From: Telmatocola sphagniphila
GTDB lineage: Bacteria > Planctomycetota > Planctomycetia > Gemmatales > Gemmataceae
Assembly (NCBI RefSeq): GCF_018398935.1
Contig: NZ_CP074694.1
Location: forward strand, 1,140,001 to 1,172,000
Direction: 5' to 3'
DNA: 32,000 bases
Below, one piece after another: positions 4,017 through 22,003 of this stretch (position 1 is the stretch's first letter; every line of letters starts with the position of its first letter). Position numbers and translations under genes: made by a program. Under the pieces are notes generated by a model. That model worked only from the letters and a program-made list of their open reading frames with translations, made no database searches and was not told the DNA's origin.

Positions 4017-4067
4017 GTTTGCTCTCCTAAACTATGGCTGTCTTGGGCACAGCCGGATTCTCAGAAA

Positions 4068-5576: not shown

Positions 5577-5587
5577 TAGTTATTCCC

Positions 5588-5848
5588 TCAATCAGCCGTA
5601 GGACGACCCGGTTGAGACGGTCGACGTTGTGGTTGCCCCGGAAACGCATCGGTAGTTTCGCCGATCGGCTCATCCGGATCGAAAATTGCTCGGGCCGAGC
5701 GCGTGAAATTTTCAAATTGACCATCTTTAACGCCCCAGGCCAGGGCCATGATCATCGCGGCGGAAAACATCAGACTTGCCACGGTAACGATCAAAATCAT
5801 CAGCTTGTCGTTGGAAGTGATAACTTCCGGATCAATTGGAATGCTCAT
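5588..5848 (-). CDS. ccoS: cbb3 oxidase maturation protein CcoS/FixS-like.
   Basis: This is an 86-aa protein with a single TM segment followed by ALAWGVKDGQFENFTRSARAIFDPDEP. That matches the CcoS pattern W-x3-GQF(D/E)..........D(D/E). A strong GGAGGAGG Shine-Dalgarno (SD) sequence precedes the ATG, which lies 11 nt upstream of ccoN. Confidence 0.8.
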   Translation of the reverse strand: MSIPIDPEVITSNDKLMILIVTVASLMFSAAMIMALAWGVKDGQFENFTRSARAIFDPDEPIGETTDAFPGQPQRRPSQPGRPTAD

Positions 5849-5875
5849 CGAATCTAACCTCCTCCGATTCGAAAA

Positions 5876-6337
5876 TTACTTCTTTTCCGGCTTCGGAGCG
5901 TCCTTGGAAGAGGCTTTGGGCTCTTCCTTTTTAGCGTCTTTGGGCTCGTCTTTTTTAACTTCCTTGGGAGCAGGAGGTGTTTCGGCCTTCGGCTCGGGTT
6001 TGACAGTAGGCTTCATAGGGAACGGGAGTTTCCCGTTCTTGGAACCTTCTTCGATCATTTTCTGAACGGAGACATCTACGGGAATACGAACCGTATTGGT
6101 GGCTTTGTCGAAGTTGCCATAAGAGCTGATCATGTCCTTCTGAGCAGCCAGCAATTCTTTTAGTTTCTGTTCACCGCTGATGGTCGGAGTCGCCACGTCC
6201 ATTTTGTTGGAGTAGTAGTAGATGACAACGATCAAACCGGCAAACAGGAACAAAAGCAACAGCGTGGTCACAATTGTAATCACCGGGAAACCGGGTGAAG
6301 GAATCTCATGTTTGTTGGGAGTCGTATTGATGTCCAT
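5876..6337 (-). CDS. Hypothetical single-pass membrane protein with a Lys/Pro/Glu-rich C-terminal tail. It sits between actF and ccoS.
   Basis: It has an ATG start and one strong TM segment (FPVITIVTTLLLLFLFAGLIVVIYYY). A short globular segment follows (NTVRIPVDVSVQKMIEEG), then a 45-aa tail (KPTVKPEPKAETPPAPKEVKKDEPKDAKKEEPKASSKDAPKPEKK). The gene is co-directional within the respiratory cluster. I recognised no family. Confidence 0.6.
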   Translation of the reverse strand: MDINTTPNKHEIPSPGFPVITIVTTLLLLFLFAGLIVVIYYYSNKMDVATPTISGEQKLKELLAAQKDMISSYGNFDKATNTVRIPVDVSVQKMIEEGSKNGKLPFPMKPTVKPEPKAETPPAPKEVKKDEPKDAKKEEPKASSKDAPKPEKK

Positions 6338-6349
6338 TTCTCGGATTCT

Positions 6350-6381
6350 CGCAAAATAACCCGGCTGGCAATACCGCCGGG
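6350..6381 (-). terminator. Candidate intrinsic terminator or attenuator between actF and the downstream orf/cco genes.
   Basis: On the minus strand, CCCGGC (complement of 6376-6381) pairs with GCCGGG (complement of 6360-6365) across a 10-nt loop. TTATTTTG (complement of 6350-6359) follows directly. The element lies about 30 nt after the actF stop. Confidence 0.4.
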
Positions 6382-6411
6382 GTAAATTCGTAACACAGAC
6401 GGCGTTCCGGT

Positions 6412-7665
6412 TTATTTCGGATCGCCGAACTCGTCGTTTTCAAAATGGATCGATTCATCCAGTCGGGGATCGCCTACGGGAATCATCGGAGCCTTTTTCC
6501 AGCCGTTGAAGAGGCAGGTCATCAACAAGCCCCCGAAGAACAGCAGCGATGCGATCGTCGTCCAGTGGAATTGTATCCCGCTGATCGGATCGTCGTGAAC
6601 GGTTGGCTTCAACATTTCCGGCATGATCTGCCAGTATTGATCGTAGCAGTGGAAAAACAGAATCCAGGATGCCACAAAGGCCATAATCTTTGGATTACGC
6701 TTGTTGCCGCGGGGCAGCAGGATCAGGAACGGAACCACGAAGTAACCGAGCGGTAGTATCACCGACATGTGATACCAGGTTCCGACACGGCGGTTGCGGA
6801 AGAACTGAACTTCCTCCGGCATGTTGCCATACCACTGCAGGAAGTACTGGTCGAATGCGATATAGGTCCAGAATACAGTGAACCCGAAGGTCAGCTTGCC
6901 CATATCGTGCAGGTGTTCTCGAGTGATCGTGTTTCTCAGGTATCCCGCCGAGCGGAGACCCAAAGTGATCAGAATAATCAACGCCAGAGAACTGCGGATC
7001 CCACCGGCCCAGAAATAAACGCCGAAGATCGTGGAGAACCAGGTGTAATTCAAGCTCATGATGAGGTCGAAAGCGGTGAACGTCGCCGTCAAGCCTAGCA
7101 GAAGTATACCGGAGGGAGCCCACCATTGCATCTTCTTGGTGATGGAGACTTCTCGTGTCGAGTCCTGCTTCAGCGAATTATTTCGCATGAAATAGGAGTA
7201 ACCGATCCAGATCGCGAAGTAGATGCAGATGCGGGCAATGAAGAATCCCGGACTCAGCCAGAATCGCTTGGAGCTAACCGGAATATCAATTTCTGTTGCG
7301 TGTGCCCCCTTATAAATGGAACCCAATCCCAGAGCAATTGGCAGGAACAGCACCAGAAGAATCGGCAGAGCCCGAGTGATATTCTCGAAGCTTCGACGAA
7401 TACCGACCGACCATCCGGCGTCCGCCACGTGATGAATCATCGTCCAGAAAAGGCAGCCCAGTGTAATCGACAGGGCGTAGACGTAGCCGTGCAGATACGA
7501 AAAGAGAAACTGCTTGTGGCCTTCGGTACTATCGAGAATGAAGCCGATCGCCAGTAGTACGGCACCGGTCAAAGTCACCGCAAGCGCCTTCTGATAAAGG
7601 CCTGCGCTGACCGACTCAGGCATATTGGGAGAATCCGGCAGTGTATGTTCCGCGGTTGCGCTCAT
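6412..7665 (-). CDS. actF: Alternative complex III subunit ActF (polytopic membrane subunit).
   Basis: This is a 417-aa multi-TM protein. The motif FWTMIHHVADAGWSVGIRRSFE is typical of ActF-type quinol:cytochrome c oxidoreductase membrane subunits. Its ATG overlaps the actE TAA by 1 nt. Confidence 0.8.
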   Translation of the reverse strand: MSATAEHTLPDSPNMPESVSAGLYQKALAVTLTGAVLLAIGFILDSTEGHKQFLFSYLHGYVYALSITLGCLFWTMIHHVADAGWSVGIRRSFENITRALPILLVLFLPIALGLGSIYKGAHATEIDIPVSSKRFWLSPGFFIARICIYFAIWIGYSYFMRNNSLKQDSTREVSITKKMQWWAPSGILLLGLTATFTAFDLIMSLNYTWFSTIFGVYFWAGGIRSSLALIILITLGLRSAGYLRNTITREHLHDMGKLTFGFTVFWTYIAFDQYFLQWYGNMPEEVQFFRNRRVGTWYHMSVILPLGYFVVPFLILLPRGNKRNPKIMAFVASWILFFHCYDQYWQIMPEMLKPTVHDDPISGIQFHWTTIASLLFFGGLLMTCLFNGWKKAPMIPVGDPRLDESIHFENDEFGDPK

Positions 7666-8477
7666 TATTTAGGCACCCCCAATTGTTCGCGCTGTGAAGC
7701 CGGTACGAGGCTCTTATCGGCGATCTGCGAGTATTGCAAAGCTCGAACGTAAGAGACAATCGCCCAACGATCGATCGGCTTGGTCATGTGCCCATAGGGA
7801 GACATGGTGTTCTTTCCCATGGTGATCGTGTTGAAGATTTCGCCATCGGCCATTTCCCGCAGCCGATCCTGATGATAGCTGGCGATGCCGACCATGTTAT
7901 ATTTGCCAACGATACCCGCCGCTGTGTCTCCCTGGCCGCCATATCCGGAAAGGCCGTGGCACATCGAGCAGTTAATGGTGTATCGTTCCTTACCGCGAGC
8001 CAGTAATTTGTCCCATCCGCCCAGTTCGTCGATGGCTCTTTGCGGTATGTTTGTAATCCACTTGGGCTGCATTTCCTTGCGTTCTTTTTTCACGAGGACA
8101 GGCTTGCCGCCTTCGAGAACTGGCTTCCCGTCCGCTCCCATCTTCGGAGTCTCGTCGATCACCGTCACCTCGTGCATACCCTTGTAGCCGAAGTAGAAGT
8201 TCTCGTCTTCCTTGAGGAAGTCGGGGTTGTCGGCTTTAAGATATCCCGCATCGGCGAAGTAGTCGGCGCCGGAGTAAGCCACCGTCCCGGAAACGGGCAT
8301 GCGAGCCGAGCGTCCATCGCCGAAGAATCGGCTCTGGGACTGCGCGTAATACTTGCCCTGATACTTCATATCCCAGAACAAGTGCCGGGGACGATTAGTC
8401 GTCTTCTGTCCCCGGGCTCCGAGCATGGCCGCGATAACGGCCGCGAGTCCGAGAATAACCAGAATCATTCGCAACAT
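7665..8477 (-). CDS. actE: Alternative complex III monoheme cytochrome c subunit ActE.
   Basis: It has an N-terminal TM anchor, an FWDMKYQ...DGRSARMPVSGTVA segment and a single heme motif, NCSMCHGLSGYG. The C-terminal class-I cytochrome c fold is indicated by MSPYGH...IVSYVRALQ. Its position between actCD and actF supports the call. Confidence 0.85.
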   Translation of the reverse strand: MLRMILVILGLAAVIAAMLGARGQKTTNRPRHLFWDMKYQGKYYAQSQSRFFGDGRSARMPVSGTVAYSGADYFADAGYLKADNPDFLKEDENFYFGYKGMHEVTVIDETPKMGADGKPVLEGGKPVLVKKERKEMQPKWITNIPQRAIDELGGWDKLLARGKERYTINCSMCHGLSGYGGQGDTAAGIVGKYNMVGIASYHQDRLREMADGEIFNTITMGKNTMSPYGHMTKPIDRWAIVSYVRALQYSQIADKSLVPASQREQLGVPK

Positions 8478-8485
8478 AGTGTTTC

Positions 8486-10489
8486 TTACGCCTCCACTAC
8501 GGCAATGTTATAACCACCCAGCTCCTGGAGCTTGGCCGTGGTCTTGGCTTCGTTGTACATGGGATCCTTGGCTTCCACAGTGAGGAAGAAACCATTGTCC
8601 GTCGAGGCGGACATTCTTCGATACTGATCCAGCGGGTGGAACAGTCTCGGAAGTCCGCAAAGGCCGATGAGGCCGAGAACCGTAAAGATCCCGCTGATCA
8701 AGACTGTCAATTCAAAACAGATGGGAATAAAAGCTTCCCAGGCTCGATACAGCTTGCCCTGAACGATGGTCGGATACCACCAGGTCATCAAGCCGAATTG
8801 CATGATGATGGCGGTACTCAAACCGGTGATCGAGCCGCAAATGGTAATCCAGGGTACGGGAGACCGAGTCATACCGATCGCTCGAACCATACCGTGAACC
8901 GGATAGGGAGTATAGGCATCGAGCGACTTGTATCCGGCATCCCGGAGCGTCTCGGCCGCGTGACGAATTTCAGCAGGAGTATTAAACTCCGCCACAATCC
9001 CCCAGTTGACGCCCTTGCCACCTTCGGCTTTGAGCACGAGTTCATCCGCCGGCACTAACACTTTCGGTGTGGCCGGAGGCTGAGGACTATGATCCCCGTG
9101 AGGATGAGAGAAGGGAAGAACGCCCTTCACTTCCGACATGGCGATCATCGGCAGGAATCGGATGAACAGCAGAGTCAGCGTGAAGAACAGGCCGAAGTCT
9201 CCGAACATCTGAATCCAGTCCACATAAGAGGGATAGAAATTCCCCCAGGAACCGGGCAGCAGATCTTTGTGCAGCGATTGAACGATAATTACGAACCGTT
9301 CATACCACATACCGATGTTGACGAAGGTCACAATGATGAATGACTTCCAGGGAGTGGTACGCCAGGACTTCATCCAATACAGCTGGGGAATGAACAGGTT
9401 GCAGCTCACCATGATCCAGTAAGCCCACCAGTAGTTGCCGGTCGCACGATCAATGAAGGTCTGAATTTCGTTAACATCCCCACCGTACCAGGCAATGAAG
9501 AACTCCATTGCGTAGGCGTAACCCACCAGCGTTCCCGTAGCAAGGATGAACTTGGCCATAACGTCCATATGGCGTTCGGTAACGATGTGCCGAATGCCCG
9601 GATACATGGCTCGCACCGGGATCATGCACTGAAGCACCATCCCGAAACCCCCGAAGATCGCACCAGCCACGAAATAAGGCGGGAAGATCGTCGTGTGCCA
9701 GCCCGGTATGATCGAAGTGGCGAAGTCGAAGGACACCACCGAGTGGACTGACAGCACCAGGGGAGTCGAGAATCCGGCCAGGATCAGATAAGCAATTTCA
9801 TAGTGCCGCCAGTGGCGGGTTGACCCACGCCAGCCGAAGCTCAGTACGCCGAAAACTGTTTTGCGATACTTGTTGGTTGCACGATCGCGAAGGGTCGCGA
9901 GGTCGGGAACCAGACCGGTGTACCAGAACAAAAGAGAAATCGTGAAGTACGTCGAAACGGCGAACAAGTCCCACAGAAGAGCCGAACGAAAGTTCTGGAA
10001 GATCCAGTTGGCATTCGGCAGCGGGAACATGAACCAGGCGTACCAGAACCGCCCCACGTGAATACCAGGGTACACCCCAGCGCAAATCACGGCGAAAATC
10101 GTCATGGCTTCTGAGAAGCGGTTAATCGAGGTACGCCATTTCTGTCGGAACAGGAACAAAATGGCCGAGATCAATGTACCGGCGTGACCGATACCGATCC
10201 AGAACACGAAGTTCGTGATATCGAAGGCCCAACCTACCGGGATGTTCGATCCCCAGACTCCAACACCGGTCGAGATCAGGTAGACTGCAGACATGACGCC
10301 CGAAAGCAAAATCGTTGCGGACATCAAAAATGCAGGCCACCACCAATCAGGCTGCGCCTTTTCCGTGATGGAACTGATCGTCTGGGAAATCTTGTGGAAA
10401 TCCTGCTGGATCGGTTCCACCCACTGGATGCGAGGTAGAGTCTCACCGGAGTGCCCGCTGCCATGGGCCGTTTCGGCTGTACTGCTCAC
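8486..10489 (-). CDS. actC: Alternative complex III ActC (NrfD/PsrC-like quinol-interacting membrane subunit) fused in frame to ActD (DUF3341-type).
   Basis: A single 667-aa ORF. Residues ~1-455 are an NrfD-like polytopic domain (GHAGTLISAILFL, WHTTIFPPYFVAGAIFGG, NIGMWYERF). A His/Pro linker follows (SHPHGDHSPQPPATP, nt ~9014-9124). Residues ~493-667 match the ActD pattern (WGIVAEFNTPAEIRHAAETLRDAGYKSLDAYTPYPVHG plus 2 TM segments). The GTG start overlaps the actB TAG by 1 nt. Confidence 0.9.
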   Translation of the reverse strand: MSSTAETAHGSGHSGETLPRIQWVEPIQQDFHKISQTISSITEKAQPDWWWPAFLMSATILLSGVMSAVYLISTGVGVWGSNIPVGWAFDITNFVFWIGIGHAGTLISAILFLFRQKWRTSINRFSEAMTIFAVICAGVYPGIHVGRFWYAWFMFPLPNANWIFQNFRSALLWDLFAVSTYFTISLLFWYTGLVPDLATLRDRATNKYRKTVFGVLSFGWRGSTRHWRHYEIAYLILAGFSTPLVLSVHSVVSFDFATSIIPGWHTTIFPPYFVAGAIFGGFGMVLQCMIPVRAMYPGIRHIVTERHMDVMAKFILATGTLVGYAYAMEFFIAWYGGDVNEIQTFIDRATGNYWWAYWIMVSCNLFIPQLYWMKSWRTTPWKSFIIVTFVNIGMWYERFVIIVQSLHKDLLPGSWGNFYPSYVDWIQMFGDFGLFFTLTLLFIRFLPMIAMSEVKGVLPFSHPHGDHSPQPPATPKVLVPADELVLKAEGGKGVNWGIVAEFNTPAEIRHAAETLRDAGYKSLDAYTPYPVHGMVRAIGMTRSPVPWITICGSITGLSTAIIMQFGLMTWWYPTIVQGKLYRAWEAFIPICFELTVLISGIFTVLGLIGLCGLPRLFHPLDQYRRMSASTDNGFFLTVEAKDPMYNEAKTTAKLQELGGYNIAVVEA

Positions 10490-13400
10490 TAATGGGCCTC
10501 CTTCTTGACGACCTTACTCATATTTTCATTGAGATTTCGAAGTCTCGGCAGATAGCTGGTTCGAGGTTTCGTATTGCGGGAACCCAGCACGAGAAAATCG
10601 GCTTCTCGCTGCTTGAGCTGATACACCCGACTGTCGGTGTCGTTCACGTTACCGAATACGATCGCTTGGGAAGGACAAGCCTGCTGGCAAGCGACGTGAA
10701 TGAGACCGTCTGGACTGACGATCTTGGCTTCACCGTCGATCTGTCGGATATCGTAACCCCAGGCCATTGCATCTTCTTTGGTCTTGGGTTTGAGGTAATT
10801 CTTCTTGGCGGCTGCGACCTTGGCGCCAATCTTCCCCCGCTCGAGTCGCTGGATGCAGTAGGTGCATTTTTCCATGACGCCTCGCATACGAACGGTGACG
10901 TCGGGATTCTTCTGCATCTTCAGCGTTTCAGGAATTCCCTTAGGTGATAAACTTTCCGTATCGAGCCCTTCGTCAGAGTTGATCTGGCCAAGGAAAGTCG
11001 GGACTCGCAAGCTGTCTTGCTGCCGTTGATTGAAATCGAACCAGTTGAAGCGGCGTACCTTATAGGGGCAGTTGTTGGAGCAATACCGGGTTCCGATGCA
11101 GCGATTGAACACCTGAATGTTCAAACCTTCCGGGCTATGCACGGCCGCATTCACCGGGCAAACGGACTCGCAGGGAGCCCCTTCGCAATGCTGGCAGGCC
11201 ATCGGTTCGGTCACAACTCGAACGTCGTCGATACCGTCACCGAAGCCGCCTTCGGGTTCCATCGGGTTCGAGTTTAGTTCGACGTTCGTGAAATAGCGAT
11301 CCAATCGGATCCAATGCATTTCACGGTTGCGTTTCACTTCCCCCTTACCGACCACCGGAATGTTGTTTTCACTCTGGCAGGCAATCACGCAGGCACTGCA
11401 ACCGGTGCAGGTATTCAGGTCGATGACCATACCCCACTGATGGTGGCCGAGCAATTTTTCGGGATAGGAAACATCCAGCGAGATTCGTTTCTTTTCGTCC
11501 AGTTCACGAGCCACTTTGTAGCCGTATTGGAAGCGAAGTTTGGGATTGTCTTCGTGGTGCTCTGGATGAACACCTTCTCCCTTGCCATGACGCTCGCCGT
11601 TTTCGTGCTCTTCGCCATGGGGTTCCCCATGCTTGTGAAGCACCAGAGTTTCGTAGTCACTCAGAGTGAATTCCGAGACAACTTCGTCTCTTTCCGCTGG
11701 AATCGTGCTGTGTTCCTGAGTCGTCACCAGCTCGTAGAAACCGGTAATCTTGGTCACTTTCGCAGGTGCGAAATGGAGATCAACACTAGTGCGAATCGGA
11801 TAGACGTCAAAGCCACCCCCACCCTGCTGATGGCCGATCGATTTGCTGCCCTTGTAGCCGAGGGTCAAAGAGATCGAGTTGTCGGCATGGCCGGGAAGGA
11901 TGTAAGCGGGAACTTCGATGGACTTGGCACCGACTTCGATTTTCAGAAGCTGGCCCTGTTTGACCGAAAGCAGCTTGGAAGTCTTGTAGCTGATGATCGC
12001 CGCGTTATCCCATACCAGCTTGGTCATGGGATCGGGCAATTCCATCAACCAGCTGTTAGTGGAGTAACGACCGTCGAAAACGCTGTAGCTGGGATGGAAG
12101 GAGACTTCCATGTTGGATTCGGACACGGCCTGCGAAGGCTTCCAGCGTCCCACGGCATCCCCAAGAGTTGCTGCAATCGTCGGCTTGACGAAAGCCGGAG
12201 CACTGTCGGCCAGGAAGCCCGTGTGGAGGAAACGGCGAAACTCGATCGGTTCGGTTTTCTTGGAGCGGGCGGTGAAAGCCTTTTGAACGACTTCATAGGC
12301 TTTGTTTTGTGCAATCAGATAGCTGCTGGCTTTTTCGTAGCTGCTGAGTTGAATCAGCAACTCCAGAGCCGAGCGACCTTTATAAAGCGGCGCGATCAGG
12401 GGTTGAATCGAGCAGTAGTGCCCATCCGACGTTTCCGCATCCCCCCAACTCTCGAGGTAGTGGGCCATTGGCAGGTGCCAGGTGGCTTTCTTATCCGAAG
12501 GTTCGGTGAACAGACCAAGACGGATAACTGTCGGAACTTTAGCGAGTTGTTTGCTGAATTCCAGATCGGCAGGAGCGGTATATGCCGGATTGCTGCCGAG
12601 AATCAATAGAGTTTTGACTTCACCCTTGCCCATTGCGGAGGCTAGATCGCTGATCGAGCGATTGTTTTCCTCGGTAACCGGACGATAATCGACGGTGACA
12701 CCCACATTGCCCAAAGCTTCGTTGATGCTGGCAGCCAGAGCATGTACGAGTGGCGGTTGACGATGGCCGACTACCACCAGACTTTTGCCCTTGTATTCGA
12801 CCAGATCCTTGACGACTTCTTCGATCCAGATGCGATCGATTTGAATCGTGCTGGCTCCGGCTTTATCGACCGAAGCCTTCCAGCTCGCACTGGTTTTGGC
12901 CCCAATCTCTTTAGCGATGGCAACCGCATAGTCAGCGATGTTGGTGGCGGGTAACCGCAGGCGGTGATCCGCCATGGAGCCGGTAATGCTAAAACCGTTC
13001 TCCACAACGTAGAGTCGATTCAGTTTCTTCGAAATGTTGTGATCGTGCGAATGCAGGGCGTCGGTTCCTCGTCGGCCGGTCGCGTAGCCGAGCGAATTTG
13101 GAATAACCGAATCTTCAATTCCCAGAAAATCACAGTCGATCGACAAGATTCGCAATGCTTTTTCGAAGTGGTAGACCGGTTGCAAAGTCTGACCGAAAGC
13201 AATGTGAGTACCCTGGCGCGCCGGGCCAACCAGATCCACTGGTTCGTGAACGTACCAGGTAGCCTTGGGCATCACACTCTTTATGTGTTCCCGAACAAGT
13301 CGGATCGAGGGAGAAGGAAGGTCTTTCGCCAGAATTGCAAAGCCTTCTCCTTGCTTCTTCGCCACTTCCGAGAAGTAGTTGACAGCGAAAGCATCGAAGT

Positions 13401-13920
13401 CTTCCCAACTTTTGCTTTCCCCGTTATTCAGAACTTCACGGGATCGGTCGGGGGAGTAAATATCCAGGACAGAGGCTTGTGCAAAAGCGTCTGTTGATCC
13501 CTGGCTGGCGGGATGCTGGGGATTGCCCTCGATCTTGGTAGGCCGACCTTCATGGCTCTCGACGATGAGCGGGATGCAGCCGCCCGGCCGAGGCTGACAA
13601 GTCGCATAGAAACTGGGCAGGCCTGGAACAGGAGTATCGAGAGGACGATTATTCTCGTCCGTGGTCCGGGCGTAAGGCAGAATCTGCAAGTCGGGTCGAC
13701 GGCAGCCAGCCAACCCGGCCAAGCCCAAGCCAGCGACAGAGAGCGAAATGAACTGGCGGCGATTGAAACCACCAGTAACTTCCGCCTCGCCGGTCGATTC
13801 ATAGATATTGGCGAAACCGGGAAATTCCTGCTTGGTGAACGCTCGAAACTCCGGGGTGTCGGCCAGATCTTCCAGAGATTGCCAGTAAGGTTTCAAATTG
13901 TTGCTCTTTTCCAGACTCAT
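10489..13920 (-). CDS. actB: Alternative complex III subunit ActB: a molybdopterin-oxidoreductase-like domain fused to a 4Fe-4S ferredoxin-like domain, with a TAT signal.
   Basis: It carries a twin-arginine signal (FNRRQFISLSVAGLGLAGLAGC) and a large MopB-like N-terminal domain. The C-terminal domain has FeS cysteine clusters (CTGCSACVIACQSENNIP; CQHCEGAPCESVCP; CIGTRYCSNNCPYKVRRFN; CTYCIQR; CQQACP). I chose the ATG at 13920 because it overlaps the actA TGA (ATGA); the ORF track's start at 13938 is a TTG. Confidence 0.93.
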   Translation of the reverse strand: MSLEKSNNLKPYWQSLEDLADTPEFRAFTKQEFPGFANIYESTGEAEVTGGFNRRQFISLSVAGLGLAGLAGCRRPDLQILPYARTTDENNRPLDTPVPGLPSFYATCQPRPGGCIPLIVESHEGRPTKIEGNPQHPASQGSTDAFAQASVLDIYSPDRSREVLNNGESKSWEDFDAFAVNYFSEVAKKQGEGFAILAKDLPSPSIRLVREHIKSVMPKATWYVHEPVDLVGPARQGTHIAFGQTLQPVYHFEKALRILSIDCDFLGIEDSVIPNSLGYATGRRGTDALHSHDHNISKKLNRLYVVENGFSITGSMADHRLRLPATNIADYAVAIAKEIGAKTSASWKASVDKAGASTIQIDRIWIEEVVKDLVEYKGKSLVVVGHRQPPLVHALAASINEALGNVGVTVDYRPVTEENNRSISDLASAMGKGEVKTLLILGSNPAYTAPADLEFSKQLAKVPTVIRLGLFTEPSDKKATWHLPMAHYLESWGDAETSDGHYCSIQPLIAPLYKGRSALELLIQLSSYEKASSYLIAQNKAYEVVQKAFTARSKKTEPIEFRRFLHTGFLADSAPAFVKPTIAATLGDAVGRWKPSQAVSESNMEVSFHPSYSVFDGRYSTNSWLMELPDPMTKLVWDNAAIISYKTSKLLSVKQGQLLKIEVGAKSIEVPAYILPGHADNSISLTLGYKGSKSIGHQQGGGGFDVYPIRTSVDLHFAPAKVTKITGFYELVTTQEHSTIPAERDEVVSEFTLSDYETLVLHKHGEPHGEEHENGERHGKGEGVHPEHHEDNPKLRFQYGYKVARELDEKKRISLDVSYPEKLLGHHQWGMVIDLNTCTGCSACVIACQSENNIPVVGKGEVKRNREMHWIRLDRYFTNVELNSNPMEPEGGFGDGIDDVRVVTEPMACQHCEGAPCESVCPVNAAVHSPEGLNIQVFNRCIGTRYCSNNCPYKVRRFNWFDFNQRQQDSLRVPTFLGQINSDEGLDTESLSPKGIPETLKMQKNPDVTVRMRGVMEKCTYCIQRLERGKIGAKVAAAKKNYLKPKTKEDAMAWGYDIRQIDGEAKIVSPDGLIHVACQQACPSQAIVFGNVNDTDSRVYQLKQREADFLVLGSRNTKPRTSYLPRLRNLNENMSKVVKKEAH

Positions 13921-14570
13921 CGATGGCAACCTCCACAATTGTTCGGCGGATTGATCCCCAGCTTCTGCTTCAGATCAGCCCCTTCGCTATCAGAAGTTGA
14001 CTTGTACAGCATGTTGGTCACTTCTTCACGCGGACGCAGATGAACTTCTGCGTTGTAGTGGCAGTGCAAGCACCAGCCCATGCTCAATGCTTTTTCCTCG
14101 TAAACCACTTTCATCTCATTGATCTGCCCGTGGCAGCTGACGCAGCCGACGCCGCGAGCCACGTGAACGCTGTGGTTGAAGTAAGCGTACTCGGGAATTT
14201 TGTGAATTTTCTTCCATTCCACCGGTTTGCCCGACCGGTAACTTTCCCGAACCAGAGAAAGCAGCGGGCTCGCACCCTTGACATTTGCCTTCTCAGGATT
14301 GTGGCAGTTCATGCAGGTCTGACTGGTTGGCACCGTCGCATGTGGAGAGTTTTCCACATTCTGGTGACAGTACCGGCAGTCCATACCGAGTTGCCCGGCG
14401 TGAATCTGGTGGGAAAAGGGAACAGGTTGTTCGGGTTGATAGCCCACTCGCGTATAGCTGGGCTGAACGTAATAGTAGAAACCGAGTACGAAAAGAGTCA
14501 CCGCAAGCCCGGCCGCCAATCCGGCTTGCCGGATTGTTGTGTCGATGCTTCGCGAGAAAATGGCTGGCAA
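13917..14570 (-). CDS. actA: Alternative complex III pentaheme cytochrome c subunit ActA.
   Basis: It has an N-terminal TM anchor and five CXXCH motifs (CRYCH, CMNCH, CVSCH, CLHCH, CGGCH). The TTG start at 14570 is preceded by AGAGGAG, and there is no in-frame ATG or GTG nearby. Confidence 0.9.
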   Translation of the reverse strand: MPAIFSRSIDTTIRQAGLAAGLAVTLFVLGFYYYVQPSYTRVGYQPEQPVPFSHQIHAGQLGMDCRYCHQNVENSPHATVPTSQTCMNCHNPEKANVKGASPLLSLVRESYRSGKPVEWKKIHKIPEYAYFNHSVHVARGVGCVSCHGQINEMKVVYEEKALSMGWCLHCHYNAEVHLRPREEVTNMLYKSTSDSEGADLKQKLGINPPNNCGGCHR

Positions 14571-15662: not shown

Positions 15663-16829
15663 TTATCTTCCGGGAATTCGAAAAGGCAGAGGCTGAGTTT
15701 TGAAATCCCGGCTTCCGTTCTGATCGGTCGCACCACCAAAGGTCTGCAATTGCGTGCTCATGATTGTTTTTTTTGCAGCGTTGATGGCCGCGTCGTTATC
15801 CGAATCAAACTCCCCGAGGCAGACGTAACTGCCTTTCAGTGTGTGAAATACGAATGGCCTGAGACCTATTTTAACGCGGGGATCACTGAGCACTCGGGCG
15901 AGTTCCTCGGCCTGGAGCGCACCATTTTCCAGAAGAGACTGCTTGGGGCTACTGCCGAAGATTTTTTCCATCACGGTAGGTTGCGGATCCGCAGTCTGCA
16001 AAACCGCCCCGCCGCTAAAACCTTTAACTACCAGGGTATAGTTCTTGCGACATTCGAAGACGTTGTACTTCTGGCCGTGGTTGATTTTTTTCCAAACTTC
16101 GATTTCCTCTTTTTCCGCTTGCAGCTTTTCGGCGGCATCATCGAAGGCGACGCTCGGATTGCGAACGACGAACGACTGTAGAAAAGGATTGAGCGGTTTC
16201 ATATCGCTTGCGCCTCGAAATGGCGTTGTAGGCACTTGCGACTGGATGGAATCCATAATTGGCGCCTTCGAAGCGCTTCCCACCACGATTTTATCGCACA
16301 GATAATCGGGAGGTGTTTTGATCTTGCGAACCTCATCCAGCCAGCGTCGCGCGGATTCCATGTCTTTCCAGGGCGAGCGAGCGGGGCCCAGGAGTACCAC
16401 ATACTCCACGTCAATATGCGTTCGCTTTACAGAAATTTTGTTGCCGTCCGGTTTGACGCCGAGCTTCCGGTACTCTTCCTGGAGTCGCTCTTTTTCCGCT
16501 TTAACCCGATTCTCCTCGGCTATCTTTTCCTTGAAGTTTCGAATCTCAATATAGGGATTAAATTTCGTGCTCGACTTAATGTAGTCAGCCAGATCCTCGG
16601 CCAGTTCCAAGCCGGATTTCTGAGAATCTTTCGGATCCTTATAGGATTTCACGATAATCAAAAAATTCCCCGCGTTGGGTACGAGCGGGTATTTGGCCTG
16701 CGGGGCCTGAGGCACCCCCACCGAAGTGATGCTGGGTAGGCCCGGATCGTTTCTGGTTTGCGCGAATGTGGCATTCTTCTGGCCAAATAAACTCGCCGCG
16801 CAAATTCCCCCGATAATCCATTTTCGCAT
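15663..16829 (-). CDS. Secreted hypothetical protein with two SPOR-like (beta-alpha-beta-beta-alpha) repeats; the domain call is tentative.
   Basis: It has an ATG with AAGGAG upstream and a signal peptide (MRKWIIGGICAASLFGQKNATFAQ). Repeat 1 is FLIIVKSYKD...GLELAEDLADYIKSS...YVVLLGPARSPWKDMESARRWLDEVRKI. Repeat 2 is YTLVVKGFSG...LQAEELARVLSD...SYVCLGEFDSDNDAAINAAKKTI. Both follow the SPOR secondary-structure and hydrophobicity pattern. This was not verified by a profile search. Confidence 0.65.
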   Translation of the reverse strand: MRKWIIGGICAASLFGQKNATFAQTRNDPGLPSITSVGVPQAPQAKYPLVPNAGNFLIIVKSYKDPKDSQKSGLELAEDLADYIKSSTKFNPYIEIRNFKEKIAEENRVKAEKERLQEEYRKLGVKPDGNKISVKRTHIDVEYVVLLGPARSPWKDMESARRWLDEVRKIKTPPDYLCDKIVVGSASKAPIMDSIQSQVPTTPFRGASDMKPLNPFLQSFVVRNPSVAFDDAAEKLQAEKEEIEVWKKINHGQKYNVFECRKNYTLVVKGFSGGAVLQTADPQPTVMEKIFGSSPKQSLLENGALQAEELARVLSDPRVKIGLRPFVFHTLKGSYVCLGEFDSDNDAAINAAKKTIMSTQLQTFGGATDQNGSRDFKTQPLPFRIPGR

Positions 16830-16973: not shown

Positions 16974-18368
16974 TCAGGGTTTGGACATACCCACAAAGCT
17001 GCCATCGTTTTCCCGGGAGAGGGCCCAGAGGAATGCCCCAACATCAGGACTTTCATAAAAGAAGCCGACCGAATTTATTCGCACTTTCTGACCTTGAGTA
17101 TCGGGTCGATTCCAATTGCGATTCATAGTTTGGCGAATGTGCTTGCCCAGAATGTCGCCGAGTTGGCTCTCCGATAGCACGGCCTGCTGCTGAGTTGGGC
17201 TCAAGCCCGGGCCGGCATTGGGTAACCCGTCGGAAAGCAAATAAATGGTATCCAGTCCTTTGCTGCGCATTCGAAATGCTGCTTCGAATGGTTCGTACAT
17301 ATTGGTTTCACCGAGTGGGCGTGTTCCCTTAACTGCTTCTTCTGCTTTGGTCTCGCTTTTTCCCGCTTCGTAATCGAGCCACTCGCCTGACTGACCCAAA
17401 GGGTAGACCAAACGATTGGAGAACATGATGATCTGGTATTTCTCCAAGTTGGGTAAGGATCGCATGATCTTTGCCACGGTACCGGCGACGATCGGCCATT
17501 TATGGGGAGCCACCGTATTTTCGTCGGTGCGTTCCATACTCCCGGACATATCGACCAGAAAAACGACCTTTCGCCCCGTGAGAGCAATGCCGGCAAACTT
17601 ATTGTCTTTTTCGATCTGCATCTTGTTCAATTTGTCGGCCAGCTTGGCTTTAGTTCCCTGCAAATCGATGAGCTGTACGGCGGCTTGATCGAGCTTTTTC
17701 TTCAACTCATCCACCGATGCGGAATTGTTGGCAGTCCTCAAGCGCATTTCTTTAATCTCGGCGGCGAGCTGGGCATTCATCCGTTCCAGCTCTTCCTGTC
17801 GGGATTTGGCGTCCAAGGTGTTGCGCGTCAGACTGGCCATCTCCGCGGTCTTTTTGGCGAGATCCTTTTCGAGAGAGGTGGATTTTTTCGCGAGGGTTTC
17901 GGCTTCTTCGCGTCGACTCTTGAGGAGAGCCTCCGCATCTTTCGCAGTTTTCTCTGCCAAAGCCAGATTGCGAGCATTTTTCTCGGCTACATCCTTCACC
18001 GTCGCGAGATTTTTCGCCTGATCCTCGAACTCCTTGCGGGCTAATGCCAGATTTTTTTCGGTTTCGTCCCTTTCTTTACGAACCAGAGCGAGTTGTGCGT
18101 TGGCTTCCGTCTTCTGCTCATTGGTAAGAGCGAGATTTTTTTGCAATTCTTCGATGTCCGCGGAAAGACGCATGGCTTCCACGTTGCGATCAAACAGGTT
18201 AAGCTGCGTTTCCAGCAATTCCGCTTGAACGGTCTGGGTTTGATCCCAGGCGAGGCTGGCGTCTCGGGTTTTCAGCAACCAGAGGAGGGTGACGCATCCT
18301 AAAGCACAGCAGAATACGTCGAGCATCCACATGCTGACGAATCCGGGAGCCTTGTGTTTGATTTTCAT
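16974..18368 (-). CDS. Membrane-anchored coiled-coil vWA-domain protein with an ExbD/TolR/MotB-like Asp-containing N-terminal TM helix.
   Basis: The N-terminus is MKIKHKAPGFVSMWMLDVFCCALGCVTLLWLL. It contains Asp17 followed by Val inside the TM segment, as in the ExbD/TolR 'DV' motif. Residues ~40-255 are heptad-rich, with KNLAL-type motifs at 77, 105, 119 and 133. The vWA domain has an intact MIDAS site (VVFLVDMSGSM ... IYLLSDGLPN). The ATG overlaps the TGA of the upstream gene (ATGA at 18365-18368). Confidence 0.85.
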   Translation of the reverse strand: MKIKHKAPGFVSMWMLDVFCCALGCVTLLWLLKTRDASLAWDQTQTVQAELLETQLNLFDRNVEAMRLSADIEELQKNLALTNEQKTEANAQLALVRKERDETEKNLALARKEFEDQAKNLATVKDVAEKNARNLALAEKTAKDAEALLKSRREEAETLAKKSTSLEKDLAKKTAEMASLTRNTLDAKSRQEELERMNAQLAAEIKEMRLRTANNSASVDELKKKLDQAAVQLIDLQGTKAKLADKLNKMQIEKDNKFAGIALTGRKVVFLVDMSGSMERTDENTVAPHKWPIVAGTVAKIMRSLPNLEKYQIIMFSNRLVYPLGQSGEWLDYEAGKSETKAEEAVKGTRPLGETNMYEPFEAAFRMRSKGLDTIYLLSDGLPNAGPGLSPTQQQAVLSESQLGDILGKHIRQTMNRNWNRPDTQGQKVRINSVGFFYESPDVGAFLWALSRENDGSFVGMSKP

Positions 18369-19576
18369 GAGGCGCTCCCGATAAGAGGTATCTTTTCTCG
18401 GATGCGGTCGGTAGGGCCGGGCGGAGGAGCCTGACTGGCCAGGCGAACGAGGGCACCTGCCACGGCATCGGCCGGTAAAATACGCACTCGAGTTTGCTCG
18501 GCCAGATTTTGATGAAGCCCCACGGCCAAACCCGGCAGACGACCAGCTTCAGCCCGTAGCCAGACTTCCGAAGGCATTTCCTCGGGAAGTGTACGTTGCA
18601 ACCAATCGACCAGCGTCGAGACACAGGGATTCGAAAGCGGCTTTGCCAGCAGTGTCAGGTCTTCTTCGCCCAGAATCAGATCCTGATACCAAGTTTCTGC
18701 CCGAACGGTGACGGTGACTTTGCGGCCGAAGCGAACCCCTTCGAGCATAGGTTCGATCTGATCGTAGAGCATTTGTTCGGAATCGGCAGAATCTCTAGGA
18801 TCGCGACGACAGATCCGGACGCAGCGATCCGAAAGTCCATTGATCAATCGTTCAATCCAGAAGCGCTCGCTGTATTTAGTGAGGTGGATCGAAGCGATCA
18901 GTTTGGCTTCATTGTGATCGACCCGGACGAGGCTTGCGGTCAAGGCATGATAGTCCGCCTGCAGAATCAGAACGACCGCGTTTTCAGTCGTCTTCCGTTT
19001 GGTTTGCTTCGAAGGGTGCCAGCTTCCAGTTTCCGGTTCATCGCTTGGCAGATCGGTTTGAAAGAGGGTATGCACCCGGTCTGCAACCAGTGCCAACTCG
19101 GGTAAGTAAAACGGATTGACTTCAATTTGATTTTTCGCGAACACCGATTGCAGCATTCGCGTCGACGCTTCCGAAAGATAGCTGGGTAGGGCCCAAAGAC
19201 CGGGCCGATTTCCCTGCAATCTTTGCTTGAAATCTATTACCCACACACTTAAGGCCGCTTCCGGATTAAGACGATGCCAGTCGCTCCGCCATTCGATCTT
19301 CTGCCCCAATTCCGCGAGTAAGTTCAGGCACATCAGATGCGGATTTTTTTTGCAAGTTTTCAGCGCGTTGCGACCGAATGTGATCCGTCGATTTCCCAGA
19401 CCCAACGCTAAAGGTAGACTCGGGTTTTGCTCCTCGAGAAAAGGGGTTTCCAGTTTTTCCCCTTTAATCCGACCGACCAGCAATCGACTGCCGGTCAAAT
19501 CGTAGCCATGCGGATTGTCCGTTCCGCCGGATAATTTCTCCGCACCATTCCGTCGACCCCAGTTGAATAACGCCAT
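18365..19576 (-). CDS. Hsp70 nucleotide-binding-domain-like (ASKHA/actin-fold) protein with degenerate ATP-binding motifs and no substrate-binding domain.
   Basis: By-eye colinear matches to the DnaK NBD are as follows. HGYDLTGSRLLVG matches IGIDLGTTNSCVA, and LWALPSYLSEASTRM matches AVITVPAYFNDAQRQ. NQIEVNPFYLPELALVA matches AGLEVKRIINEPTAAAL, and ERFWIERLINGL matches EDFDSRLINYL. VWLRAEAGRLPGL...ILPADAVAGALVRLA matches VILVGGQTRMP...VNPDEAVAIGAAVQG. I chose the ATG at 19576, because the track's start at 19726 overlaps the upstream gene. Confidence 0.75.
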   Translation of the reverse strand: MALFNWGRRNGAEKLSGGTDNPHGYDLTGSRLLVGRIKGEKLETPFLEEQNPSLPLALGLGNRRITFGRNALKTCKKNPHLMCLNLLAELGQKIEWRSDWHRLNPEAALSVWVIDFKQRLQGNRPGLWALPSYLSEASTRMLQSVFAKNQIEVNPFYLPELALVADRVHTLFQTDLPSDEPETGSWHPSKQTKRKTTENAVVLILQADYHALTASLVRVDHNEAKLIASIHLTKYSERFWIERLINGLSDRCVRICRRDPRDSADSEQMLYDQIEPMLEGVRFGRKVTVTVRAETWYQDLILGEEDLTLLAKPLSNPCVSTLVDWLQRTLPEEMPSEVWLRAEAGRLPGLAVGLHQNLAEQTRVRILPADAVAGALVRLASQAPPPGPTDRIREKIPLIGSAS

Positions 19577-19647
19577 GCTGGACTTCCGTGATGGAGTGAT
19601 CAGTTCAAATCGAATCGCTAACTTCCATAGGACATATCGTCTGCAAA

Positions 19648-20454
19648 TTACTCGACGCTCTCCGCGAGTTCGGGTTGCGGATCGTAAAGTCGCAATAACA
19701 GATGTTCTTGACAGTACTGCTGGCAATCGATCAAAAGTAACTCCTCCGCTCGCTGGACGACGTGAATGATGTACATGAGCACAACGCTCAGCGCCAGTGC
19801 CACAAAGGTACAGTCAAAGGCAATTCCCAGCTGATCAGTCACCTGTTTGATGAAATCGGGGTCGCGCTGGTTGCCTGCTTTACTCATTCCGCCGGCCAAG
19901 CCACGTACGGTTCCCAGGAAACCGATGGCCGGGATGGCCCAACTCAGATAGGACAGAATTCCCATGCTGGAAATCATGCGATTCTGTTCGACTTCGGTTT
20001 GAGTCCTTACCACCTCACCCACATCGGTGGCTTTTCGGCTAATTGAAAACTTGCTCAACCCCAGTTGAATCATCTTGGCAAGAATAAAAGGCTTTCCTCG
20101 AGTTATGGAATCGATGCGGCGCGAGAGCGGCCGGCCATCTTCGGGAAGCACTCTTACACCTTCCTCGGTGGGGAGCAGACCGAGAGAAAATGCCTGTCGT
20201 TGACGGAGGCATTCCTGGTAGCGCTGCAGGAGTAGCAGACCGGACCAGACGAAGCAGAGGTAGCAAAGTATTTGTTCTGGCCCCAGGAGCAACCTGGCCA
20301 CGCGTTCCTTGTTCCACTTGGCCCAATAGGCCGCCGTGCTTTCGGCGGGCTGGAAGTACTGCCAAAGTGGGATCGTTATGCCGCCTACAATGAGAATGGA
20401 TAAAAGAAACCACAGCCACTCTCTGTGGGGGCGTCGGGACTGCTTGACACTCAT
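19648..20454 (-). CDS. MotA/TolQ/ExbB-family proton-channel-like membrane protein.
   Basis: It has 4 predicted TM segments with a large loop between TM2 and TM3. The C-terminal signature SWAIPAIGFLGTVRGL...LGIAFDCTFVALALSVVLMY parallels TolQ/ExbB (PxxGLxGTVxG ... AExLxxTxxGL). I chose the ATG at 20454; the track's start at 20496 is a TTG. Confidence 0.8.
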   Translation of the reverse strand: MSVKQSRRPHREWLWFLLSILIVGGITIPLWQYFQPAESTAAYWAKWNKERVARLLLGPEQILCYLCFVWSGLLLLQRYQECLRQRQAFSLGLLPTEEGVRVLPEDGRPLSRRIDSITRGKPFILAKMIQLGLSKFSISRKATDVGEVVRTQTEVEQNRMISSMGILSYLSWAIPAIGFLGTVRGLAGGMSKAGNQRDPDFIKQVTDQLGIAFDCTFVALALSVVLMYIIHVVQRAEELLLIDCQQYCQEHLLLRLYDPQPELAESVE

Positions 20455-20737: not shown

Positions 20738-22003
20738 ATGAAGCCATCTCTCCTGGTTTGTCTGCTCCTGCTACACGGAGCTTCCTCAGCCGCGCAAACT
20801 CCCCGATTCGAGATGCAGGAAATTACTCGAGATCTCTCGATCGGTTATGCCGTAATTGCCGCGGATATCAACGGCGACGGTAAACCGGATCTGGTGGTGG
20901 TCGACAAGCATCGCGTGATCTGGTTTGAAAACCCGACTTGGAAGATGCACACGATACTCACCGGCAAAACTCGGCCGGACAACGTCTGTATCGCCGCCTG
21001 GGATGTCGATGGGGATGGTAAAATCGATTTGATTCTCGGAGCCGATTGGGCTCCCTTCAATACGAAAAGTGGCGGGACTTTGCACTGGCTAAAACAGCCC
21101 AAAAATCTGAATCAAGAGTGGGAAATGTTCCCCATTTGCGAAGAGCCTACTGTTCATCGGGTGAAGGTGATACCCAATTTGTATCCCGGCCACAAACCTG
21201 GTATCGTGCTCGCACCTTTGATGGGCCGCGACTCCAGTCGGGAAGCAAACTGGATGGATGGCCGGCCAGTGAGATTATTATCTTTTCCAATTCCGAAAGA
21301 TCCGCAAAAAGGGCCCTGGAAAGCGGATGTGATCTCCGAAGAATTACACGTTGTTCACAATTTCGCGTTTGAGGAGGTTGCTCCGAACTCGCTGCGGATT
21401 GCCACCGCGAGCTATGAAGGAGTGAGTCTATTCACTCGCACCACTAAAGATGGATCTTGGGTCAAGCGAAATTTCAATCCCGGTAATCAAGCCAATCTCA
21501 AAAGTAATCGGGGCTCTAGCGAAATCGCCCTCTTTCTATTAAAAGGCGGCGACGGTGCGAATAGGGACGGCCGCGGCAAAGCGATAATCGCTACCATTGA
21601 GCCCTGGCATGGCAATCAAGTGGTCGTGTATCCGCCGACAGCGTCCTCCGCGACTCAGATTGAGAACTCCACGAAAAATCGACTCATTTTAGATGATCAT
21701 CTGCGCTGGGGGCATGCCGTGAAATTCGGTCATCTTCTAGGCGCGGATTCGCCGTTTCTTGTCGCAGGAGTTCGAGATAATCCGAACAAAGAGGACAAAT
21801 TTTCCGAGAAATGTGGCGTGAGAATTTATCAGCCTGAGGATGCGGCGGCTACGAAGTGGAGACGGACAATTCTCGATGAAGGCGGGATCGCGGTGGAAGA
21901 TTTGATTGTGGCCGACCTCGATGGCGATGGTCGGCCGGAAATCATCGCAGTGGGCCGAGCCACCAAGAATATGCGGATCTATTGGAATAAGACCGGAAAA
22001 TAA
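20738..22003 (+). CDS. Secreted FG-GAP/VCBS-repeat (beta-propeller) protein.
   Basis: It has a signal peptide (MKPSLLVCLLLLHGASSAAQ). It also has repeated Ca-binding-loop motifs: DINGDGKPDLVVVD, WDVDGDGKIDLILG and ADLDGDGRPEIIAVG. Confidence 0.85.
   Translation: MKPSLLVCLLLLHGASSAAQTPRFEMQEITRDLSIGYAVIAADINGDGKPDLVVVDKHRVIWFENPTWKMHTILTGKTRPDNVCIAAWDVDGDGKIDLILGADWAPFNTKSGGTLHWLKQPKNLNQEWEMFPICEEPTVHRVKVIPNLYPGHKPGIVLAPLMGRDSSREANWMDGRPVRLLSFPIPKDPQKGPWKADVISEELHVVHNFAFEEVAPNSLRIATASYEGVSLFTRTTKDGSWVKRNFNPGNQANLKSNRGSSEIALFLLKGGDGANRDGRGKAIIATIEPWHGNQVVVYPPTASSATQIENSTKNRLILDDHLRWGHAVKFGHLLGADSPFLVAGVRDNPNKEDKFSEKCGVRIYQPEDAAATKWRRTILDEGGIAVEDLIVADLDGDGRPEIIAVGRATKNMRIYWNKTGK

Follow-up and report, generated by a model that had tools for sequence, protein, structure and literature searches.

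A putative B-type motor subunit of the Gemmatales that joins an Asp-bearing transmembrane helix, a coiled-coil stalk and a vWA head

Introduction

Can a protein that ends in a domain of the von Willebrand factor A (vWA) type serve as the inner, ion-binding subunit of an envelope motor? This question is raised by a gene in a 32,000-nucleotide stretch of DNA from Telmatocola sphagniphila, a bacterium of the Gemmataceae within the Planctomycetota (contig NZ_CP074694.1, positions 1,140,001 to 1,172,000; the whole of this stretch is called the window below). The gene, here the vWA gene, is the last of a three-gene operon encoded on one strand, in which it follows a gene for a TolQ/MotA-like channel protein and a gene for a protein resembling the nucleotide-binding domain (NBD) of Hsp70. 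An earlier reading of this DNA, made from the letters alone (the sequence-only reading), had proposed that its product is B-subunit-like and that a coiled coil and a vWA domain carrying a metal ion-dependent adhesion site (MIDAS) replace the periplasmic domain.

The 5:2 ion-driven motors, among them MotAB, ExbBD, TolQR, GldLM and ZorAB, run as a common thread through the energetics of the bacterial envelope. The evidence assembled here favors, with a probability of about 0.68, the vWA protein being a B-type (inner, ion-binding) subunit of a 5:2 motor of the MotA/ExbB/TolQ class. Pfam, AlphaFold2 and Foldseek agree with the anatomy that the sequence-only reading had described, and its interpretation as a B subunit is supported by the partner gene, the Asp of the membrane helix, the heptads and the MIDAS. 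The idea itself has already been published in silico, in the form of a family termed TPH-vWA that is predicted to supply a 5:2 motor with its dimeric partner (Mol Biol Evol 2025, PMC12204202). The coordinates of the features discussed are collected in Table 1.

Table 1. Features of the vWA gene and its neighbors, in positions of the window
Feature	Position	Strand	Size or residues	Basis or detail
B-type subunit gene, putative (transmembrane helix with Asp, coiled-coil stalk, vWA head)	16974..18368	(-)	464 aa	
Transmembrane ("transpore") helix	18273..18341	(-)	residues ~10-32	hydropathy and AlphaFold2 helix
D17 codon	18318-18320	(-)	residue 17	within MLDVFCCALGC
Heptad-periodic helical stalk	17604..18272	(-)	residues 33-255	periodicity, AlphaFold2 helices, coiled-coil matches
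Zone of 14-residue repeats (xKNLALxx)	17946..18143	(-)	residues 76-141	motif positions, lag identity
Probable stalk hinge or discontinuity	17715..17810	(-)	residues 187-218	AlphaFold2, register shift, indels
vWA domain with complete MIDAS	16977..17573	(-)	residues ~266-464	PF13519, AlphaFold2, Foldseek
MIDAS DxSxS	17538-17552	(-)	residues 273-277	DMSGS
MIDAS T355 codon	17304-17306	(-)	residue 355	invariant
MIDAS D380 codon	17229-17231	(-)	residue 380	within SDG, residues 379-381
Stand-alone degenerate Hsp70 NBD-like protein	18365..19576	(-)	403 aa	AlphaFold2 and Foldseek
A subunit, 4-TM channel protein of the MotA/TolQ/ExbB family	19648..20454	(-)	268 aa from ATG 20454	PF01618
Secreted FG-GAP/beta-propeller protein, divergent from the TolQ-like gene	20738..22003	(+)	421 aa	library match, synteny

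The Asp-bearing helix of the vWA protein

The gene is real, as the sequence-only reading had taken it to be: its 464-aa product is identical to QVL33266.1/WP_213498156.1 of Telmatocola sphagniphila, which NCBI names "VWA domain-containing protein". From the N-terminus to the C-terminus the protein consists of a basic MKIKHK segment, a single hydrophobic helix, a helical stretch of ~220 residues and the vWA domain. The AlphaFold2 prediction, a monomer model built from an input of 26 homologs, has a mean pLDDT of 80 and shows a helix over residues 10-186, a nonhelical segment over 187-218, a second helix over 219-255 and a confident vWA fold.

The transmembrane (TM) helix, VSMWMLDVFCCALGCVTLLWLL, contains Asp17 and no His, and the SHLS motif is absent from it. 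Its segment M15-V26, MLDVFCCALGCV, is invariant in the 26 aligned homologs (M15, L16, D17, F19, C20, C21, A22, L23, G24, C25 and V26), save for V18, which is nearly invariant. The sequence-only reading had made its case depend on the conservation of the Asp, and D17 was found to be invariant both in the Gemmatales and in distant proteobacterial homologs; L16, D17, C21, G24 and L28 (the pattern L-D-x3-C-x2-G-x3-L) are common to the TM helices of the vWA protein and its gammaproteobacterial homologs. As a separate observation, the three cysteines within the helix, C20, C21 and C25 (residues 20-25, 18294-18311(-)), are invariant in the Gemmatales, and C21 is also kept in the paired homologs of the Proteobacteria.

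The topology was judged from flank-charge counts according to the positive-inside rule. In the 56 orthologs compared, the net charge of the N-terminal flank of the helix is +3 (+2 in two of them), that of the C-terminal flank being ~0 (range -2 to +2). Asp17 is situated in the N-terminal third of the helix, which is also where the Asp of N-in B subunits lies and where it meets the Thr ring; to our knowledge, all known B subunits are N-in. Flank charges and Asp position together favor an N-in topology of the vWA protein, which would place the vWA domain outside the cytoplasm.

The operon and its channel-protein partner

The ATG of the vWA gene overlaps the stop codon of the middle gene (ATGA), which indicates translational coupling of the two. 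The protein encoded by the first gene, named by NCBI as a MotA/TolQ/ExbB proton channel family protein, matches PF01618 with an E value of 5.3e-11 and has four hydrophobic segments, the longest ORF of the gene extending back to TTG 20496. A profile that includes this TolQ-like protein aligns to residues 28-212 of E. coli TolQ, comprising the TM1-loop-TM2-TM3 core, with its GFxGTVxG and AFxxT motifs falling on T145 and T178 of TolQ, so that both pore-lining Thr residues are kept; this Thr pair is invariant. The A-type partner that a B subunit calls for is thus encoded in the same operon, with both pore Thr residues present.

Both upstream genes are conserved, in the same order, in 57 of the 59 Gemmatales loci whose upstream flank extends over 2.7 kb or more. 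In two Gemmatales loci (L049 and L065) the 6 kb upstream of the vWA gene contain neither a TolQ-like nor an Hsp70-like gene, and there the operon is apparently split. No gene for ExbD, TolR or MotB accompanies the operon in the Gemmatales loci, in which a gene encoding an Asp-bearing helix of the TPH type is present once in 78 of 81 cases, is absent in three and never occurs twice. A scan of the operon region for promoters and terminators returned 0 promoter-like sites, with terminator-like sites at chance level.

Clustering at 90% identity divides the full-length homologs of the vWA protein into at least 120 clusters; they are 42-53% identical to it, and those with a named organism belong to the Gemmataceae. 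A scan of GTDB with one genome per species gave 188 stretches that match, and of the best 80 among them almost all are from the Gemmatales. Five GTDB records (loci L012, L016, L017, L034 and L047) carry the titles "uncultured Alcaligenaceae" or "Bacteroidales" and contain typical operons of the Gemmataceae type, with 42-46% identity to the vWA protein; these are probably mislabeled or contaminated bins.

Proteobacterial relatives and the TPH-vWA family

When the TolQ-like protein was used as the query of an exhaustive search, 915 cluster representatives were recovered at E <= 1e-10, of which many have ~260-290 aa and 30-36% identity, and a profile built from these matches led to a large proteobacterial family, of which five loci (L082-L086) were examined. 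There the gene order is a Ser/Thr kinase (with TPR in some), a PEGA+FGE-sulfatase protein, a small secreted protein, the MotA-like protein, an FHA-containing protein and two vWA proteins. The middle, Hsp70-like protein has 434-468 aa and ends in an FHA domain. The two consecutive vWA proteins, each of ~340-365 aa, have N-termini such as SLSFLDIMSCGFGAV and LSFLDVICCGFGAVILLL; their TM segment is followed by ~120-135 helical residues and then by the vWA domain, one of the paralogs ending in NGGTFVGLN.

The relationship to the vWA protein of the window is detected directly. BLASTP against the pair of locus L082 (Gammaproteobacteria), which lies downstream of a MotA-like gene whose product is 30-36% identical to the TolQ-like protein, gave E values of 3e-16 and 4e-11, and a C-terminal GxFxG motif and the N-terminal motif are common to the window protein and the proteobacterial members. 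The middle proteins are homologous as well (hhalign E 2.9e-5, the alignment including RxxRxDPxxxAxxEQ). Such a homologous triad in both Gemmatales and Proteobacteria points to an ancient and widespread unit, of which the Gemmatales operon is one branch. The kinase and the FHA domain of the proteobacterial loci suggest a phospho-regulation that the Gemmatales version lacks.

As described for the TPH-vWA family, its genes tightly co-occur with tolQ homologs in the absence of tolR and exbD, the SHLS motif is missing, and the proteins form mostly heterologous pairs in Proteobacteria and Verrucomicrobia; AlphaFold3 models place such a pair inside a TolQ-like pentamer, with the two Asp residues ringed by Thr (PMC12204202). 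The five proteobacterial loci would appear to represent this family, the match having been made by the description in that paper and not by its sequences, and on the strength of its similarity to them the window protein can be assigned to the TPH-vWA family. It shares with the family a TM-tethered vWA domain encoded beside a tolQ-like gene without tolR or exbD, the conserved Asp and the missing SHLS, and with the five loci also the operon logic, in which an Hsp70-like gene occupies the middle. It differs in that the Gemmatales have one gene per locus, presumably giving a homodimer, as opposed to two in each proteobacterial locus examined; in that their stalk of ~220 residues (206-291) is about twice as long as one of ~120-135; and in that their Hsp70-like partner is without FHA and has no kinase or PEGA/FGE-sulfatase neighbors. 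Coiled coils, proteins of the Hsp70-like or FHA kind and kinases go unmentioned in the published account, which does not list the Gemmatales for TPH-vWA (PMC12204202).

The vWA head

The match to VWA_2 (PF13519) covers residues 268-381 with an E value of 3.8e-8, and the domain is modeled by AlphaFold2 at a pLDDT of ~90. Foldseek relates its fold to the vWA domains of ITIH, Cav alpha2delta, ANTXR2 and LapA (E 2e-8 to 1e-6). The DMSGS and SDG residues that the sequence-only reading had assigned to a MIDAS are present and the site is complete, all five ligand residues (D273, S275, S277, T355 and D380) being invariant in the 26 aligned sequences; SDGLP occurs in 56 of 56 orthologs. The same alignment shows an invariant neck motif, DLQG.K..L.D, and an invariant C-terminus, GSFVGMSKP, apart from its K/R position.

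The coiled-coil stalk

Between helix and head, the protein contains no Pro and one Gly only, and its database matches are to the coils of SMC, myosin and tropomyosin. The coiled coil was judged by Fourier and autocorrelation tests against shuffled sequences. The hydrophobicity power at periods of 3.5 and 7/3 (2.33) exceeds that of 2000 out of 2000 shuffles, making the heptad periodicity that had been surmised from the letters highly significant, and identity at lags of 14, 28 and 42 residues (over residues 36-257) stands 4.3, 5.7 and 4.9 standard deviations above the shuffles, identity at lags of 7, 21 and 35 over the same residues being at background. The recurrence of the motif is therefore more than chance. 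The positions 77, 105, 119 and 133 given for it in the sequence-only reading are those of the [KR]NLA cores, with the spacings of 28, 14 and 14 confirmed; the motif strings quoted there begin at residues 76, 104, 118 and 132.

The 14-residue duplications are old, since Tandem Repeats Finder detects no repeat at the DNA level in the vWA gene, by which a recent duplication of these units is ruled out. The copy number of units of the ERDxxAKNLALV type differs among the homologs, a 530-aa homolog having several extra. Across the 56 orthologs, between 206 and 291 residues separate the end of the TM helix from the conserved FAGI motif, which at 0.15 nm per residue would correspond to a fully extended stalk of ~30-43 nm among the orthologs and of ~33 nm in the protein considered here.

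The single continuous helix of some 30 nm that the sequence-only reading had considered holds in part. AlphaFold2 does give a long helix over residues 10-186, but this is followed by a break at 187-218, where the pLDDT drops to 45-55 and the chain is nonhelical, where the family alignment is richest in indels, and around which the best heptad register, constant over residues ~57-175 and again over 204-252, shifts (at ~176-204). Because low model confidence, register shift and clustered indels coincide, this segment is hinge-like, and the stalk is probably hinged there as opposed to forming one continuous helix. It is probably two-stranded and parallel.

The Hsp70-like middle protein

The 403-aa product of the middle gene is 100% identical to KIH39_04945. 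The longest ORF of this gene, 18365-19726(-), has TTG 19726 as its start codon and reaches back over the end of the TolQ-like gene; the lengths of the homologs and the NCBI model of 403 aa indicate that the true start is ATG 19576. No match to Pfam, NCBIfam or PADLOC was obtained for the protein, and weak profile matches connect it to Hsp70. Its AlphaFold2 model (pTM 0.82) shows an NBD fold of the actin/Hsp70 type and nothing beyond the NBD, and Foldseek aligns it to the NBDs of DnaK and BiP with TM scores of 0.70-0.78 and E values of 1e-17 to 4e-19.

The protein is without signal peptide, TM segment and substrate-binding domain. Its phosphate loops are degenerate, reading DLNASR and DADEHALT instead of DLGTT and DLGGGTFD, and the position of the catalytic Glu (INEP) is lost. 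DRCVRxCRRDPRD is invariant, and the N-terminus, MxWxxWSRK, is conserved. The middle protein is predicted to be cytoplasmic and ATPase-degenerate.

A model of the motor and its alternatives

In the model favored here, the TolQ-like protein would form a pentamer, and two copies of the vWA protein would insert their Asp17 helices into its pore, where protonation and deprotonation of Asp17 against the Thr ring would drive a relative rotation. After the TM helix the chain would continue straight into the two-stranded stalk of ~220 residues, with its hinge at 187-218, which would project into the periplasm and carry the paired vWA heads, the MIDAS sites of which may bind a partner in the envelope. 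A protein of the envelope or the outer membrane could serve as this partner through one of its acidic side chains, the FG-GAP propeller encoded next to the operon being one candidate. Rotation or pulling driven by the proton motive force (PMF) would in this way be delivered ~30 nm from the inner membrane, and the Hsp70-NBD-like protein could be a regulator or an anchor on the cytoplasmic face.

Several points weigh against this model. No member of the wider family has a demonstrated function (PMC12204202). The vWA protein shows no detected similarity to ExbD, TolR, MotB, GldM or ZorB. In the repeat zone, strong hydrophobic residues occupy only about half of the a/d positions, and this weak core, together with the break at 187-218, makes the transmission of torque along the stalk uncertain. 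The Hsp70-like operon partner is cytoplasmic, which could imply that the coil and the vWA domain are cytoplasmic too.

The alternative that survives best, although it is unlikely, keeps the motor and reverses its work. The vWA heads would anchor the B dimer to a fixed component of the envelope as a stator, the TolQ-like pentamer would turn around it, and the Hsp70-like protein would take the output in the cytoplasm, making the system a Zorya-like sensor of envelope state and not a transducer of force to the outer membrane. The periplasmic domains of MotB and TolR act as anchors, and here a strictly conserved cytoplasmic partner is encoded between the two motor genes, its proteobacterial counterpart carrying an FHA domain in an operon with a Ser/Thr kinase, which points to signaling in the cytoplasm. 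A stalk of 206-291 residues and of variable length would, however, be unusual as an anchor; moreover, PADLOC finds a weak ZorA match only and no other defense component, and the locus lies among respiratory housekeeping genes and is core-like, as judged from the 188 stretches matched in GTDB.

A second alternative, which is improbable, inverts the topology: with the N-terminus outside, the coil and the vWA domain would be cytoplasmic together with the Hsp70-like protein, and the MotA-like protein would be a mere membrane platform. The absence of a signal peptide and a TM segment from the Hsp70-like partner would fit this arrangement, vWA domains work also in the cytoplasm (the Foldseek matches include TFIIH and Rpn10), and the C-terminal flank of the TM helix does contain K/R residues (KTRD/E). 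Nevertheless, the flank charges of the 56 orthologs oppose it, as does the placement of Asp17 in the same third of the helix as in the known, N-in B subunits. That the vWA protein is no motor component at all, being an adhesin or spacer of coiled-coil/vWA build that is anchored in the membrane and only happens to adjoin a TolQ-like gene, is highly improbable, for although it would account for the lack of sequence similarity to known B subunits, it is opposed by the conservation of the triad between Gemmatales and Proteobacteria despite only ~20-36% identity, by the invariance of a charged Asp within a TM helix, by the translational coupling that the ATGA overlap indicates and by the absence of any other B subunit for the TolQ-like protein.

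Comparison with known ion-driven motors

The motor reading can be set against the well-studied 5:2 systems. In scans with Pfam and NCBIfam, the vWA protein matched VWA_2 plus coiled-coil noise (SMC, Rad50 and PspA models), with no match to ExbD/TolR (PF02472), MotB_plug or OmpA at E <= 0.1. A profile of 49 N-terminal positions, combining Gemmatales and proteobacterial sequences, when compared with all PDB chains returned a sole and irrelevant match (E 3.9), a TM segment of 23 residues carrying little sequence signal either way. Given this lack of similarity to known B subunits, the claim made here is that the protein would work like a B subunit, as a member of the TPH-vWA family, and not that it belongs to the ExbD/TolR family.

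With ExbB-ExbD-TonB and TolQ-TolR-TolA, the system shares a TolQ-like subunit with the Thr pair and a partner whose TM helix has an Asp of the essential type, and by functional analogy it shares with domain II of TolA and with TonB a long element that spans the periplasm and ends in a binding domain. In contrast to those systems, the Asp helix, the rod and the head are here part of one polypeptide, which would merge the roles of TolR/ExbD and of TolA/TonB, and the vWA protein is without the periplasmic fold of ExbD/TolR, the SHLS helix and the C-terminal domain of TonB/TolA. GldL-GldM and PorL-PorM provide the established precedent of a B-type subunit that forms a long dimeric periplasmic shaft and carries the motor output; the shafts of GldM and PorM, however, are built of globular and Ig-like domains and not of coiled coil, have no vWA head and show no detected sequence relation.

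MotA-MotB and PomA-PomB are alike in combining a 4-TM A subunit with a single-TM B subunit that has a conserved Asp near the cytoplasmic end, whereas MotB differs by its plug helix, its OmpA-like peptidoglycan-binding domain and its output to FliG in the cytoplasm. Zorya ZorA-ZorB likewise unites a motor of the 5:2 type with a very long coiled coil, but there the coiled-coil tail is on the A subunit and cytoplasmic, and ZorB binds peptidoglycan; the window locus, furthermore, has no genes resembling ZorC or ZorD and looks like core genome. In the Agl-Glt machinery of Myxococcus, a PMF motor of the TolQR type is functionally linked to the vWA/MIDAS adhesin CglB at the envelope (PMC9946355), with the difference that CglB is a separate outer-membrane lipoprotein reached via many Glt proteins, the vWA domain being fused to the B subunit in the present case.

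Significance

What is already known is the TPH-vWA kind of protein, in silico only (PMC12204202); what has not been found described is the pseudo-Hsp70 third component and the coiled-coil stalk. With the general idea already published, the value of the locus lies in making the hypothesis testable, and not in a new principle. In this motor of the TPH-vWA type, a stalk and an integrin-like head would be attached directly to the ion-binding helix, and with the output device fused in this manner a single mutant of D17 or of the MIDAS would test the coupling of ion flow to distal binding. The Gemmatales form is the simplest, with one B gene, no kinase/FHA layer and a wide distribution in the order. 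The strictly conserved pseudo-Hsp70 partner, which goes without mention in the account of the family (PMC12204202), offers a concrete new way into the question of how, from the cytoplasmic side, such motors are kept in place or regulated. The variation of stalk length between species amounts to a natural experiment on periplasm width. Bacteria of the Gemmatales are known for an enlarged periplasm.

A more far-reaching reading, which is put forward tentatively and with the odds somewhat against it, is that the triad constitutes an unrecognized three-component envelope machine extending from Proteobacteria to Planctomycetota, which in the Gemmatales would be part of the core genome and would act as a homodimeric, PMF-driven shaft across the wide periplasm. 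The length of the stalk would then be tuned in evolution in steps of 14 residues, the partner bound by the MIDAS, possibly the FG-GAP propeller, would be pulled or turned, and the pseudo-Hsp70 could be a cytoplasmic clutch or anchor. If true, such a machine would amount to a fusion of the TolR/ExbD and TolA/TonB roles in one polypeptide.

Genomic surroundings of the operon

The 421-aa protein encoded divergently from the TolQ-like gene matches FG-GAP_3 (E 4.7e-16) and AUDH_beta_propeller (E 2.3e-15). Its gene is syntenic in 29 of the 51 loci with enough flank, the other neighbors not being conserved. An FG-GAP propeller beside a MIDAS-bearing vWA domain recalls the pairing of integrin alpha and beta, which makes it a candidate partner of the vWA head, and the propeller is possibly associated with the operon and a ligand of that head.

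Other functions for a locus of this composition were considered. PADLOC reported a weak ZorA2 match of the TolQ-like protein (E 3e-4) and JetC/LmuB coiled-coil noise, and a defense system was ruled out, as no component set was found and the locus is core-genome-like and set among housekeeping genes. A vWA membrane protein of the BatA/BatB type and a vWA kinase of the PpkA type were both ruled out by there being no MoxR, kinase or type VI secretion system (T6SS) context in the window.

The vWA gene is directly followed downstream by a 388-aa ORF, 15663-16829(-), whose N-terminus resembles a signal peptide; it matches no family and is next to the operon in no other locus. The remaining genes of the window have housekeeping functions, such as alternative complex III, cytochrome oxidase and a TauE exporter. 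Most extensive is a respiratory cluster at 2602-14570(-), which encodes the alternative complex III (ActD/NrfD-like proteins, an Fe-S subunit and multiheme cytochromes) and also cytochrome c oxidase subunit I and c-type cytochromes.

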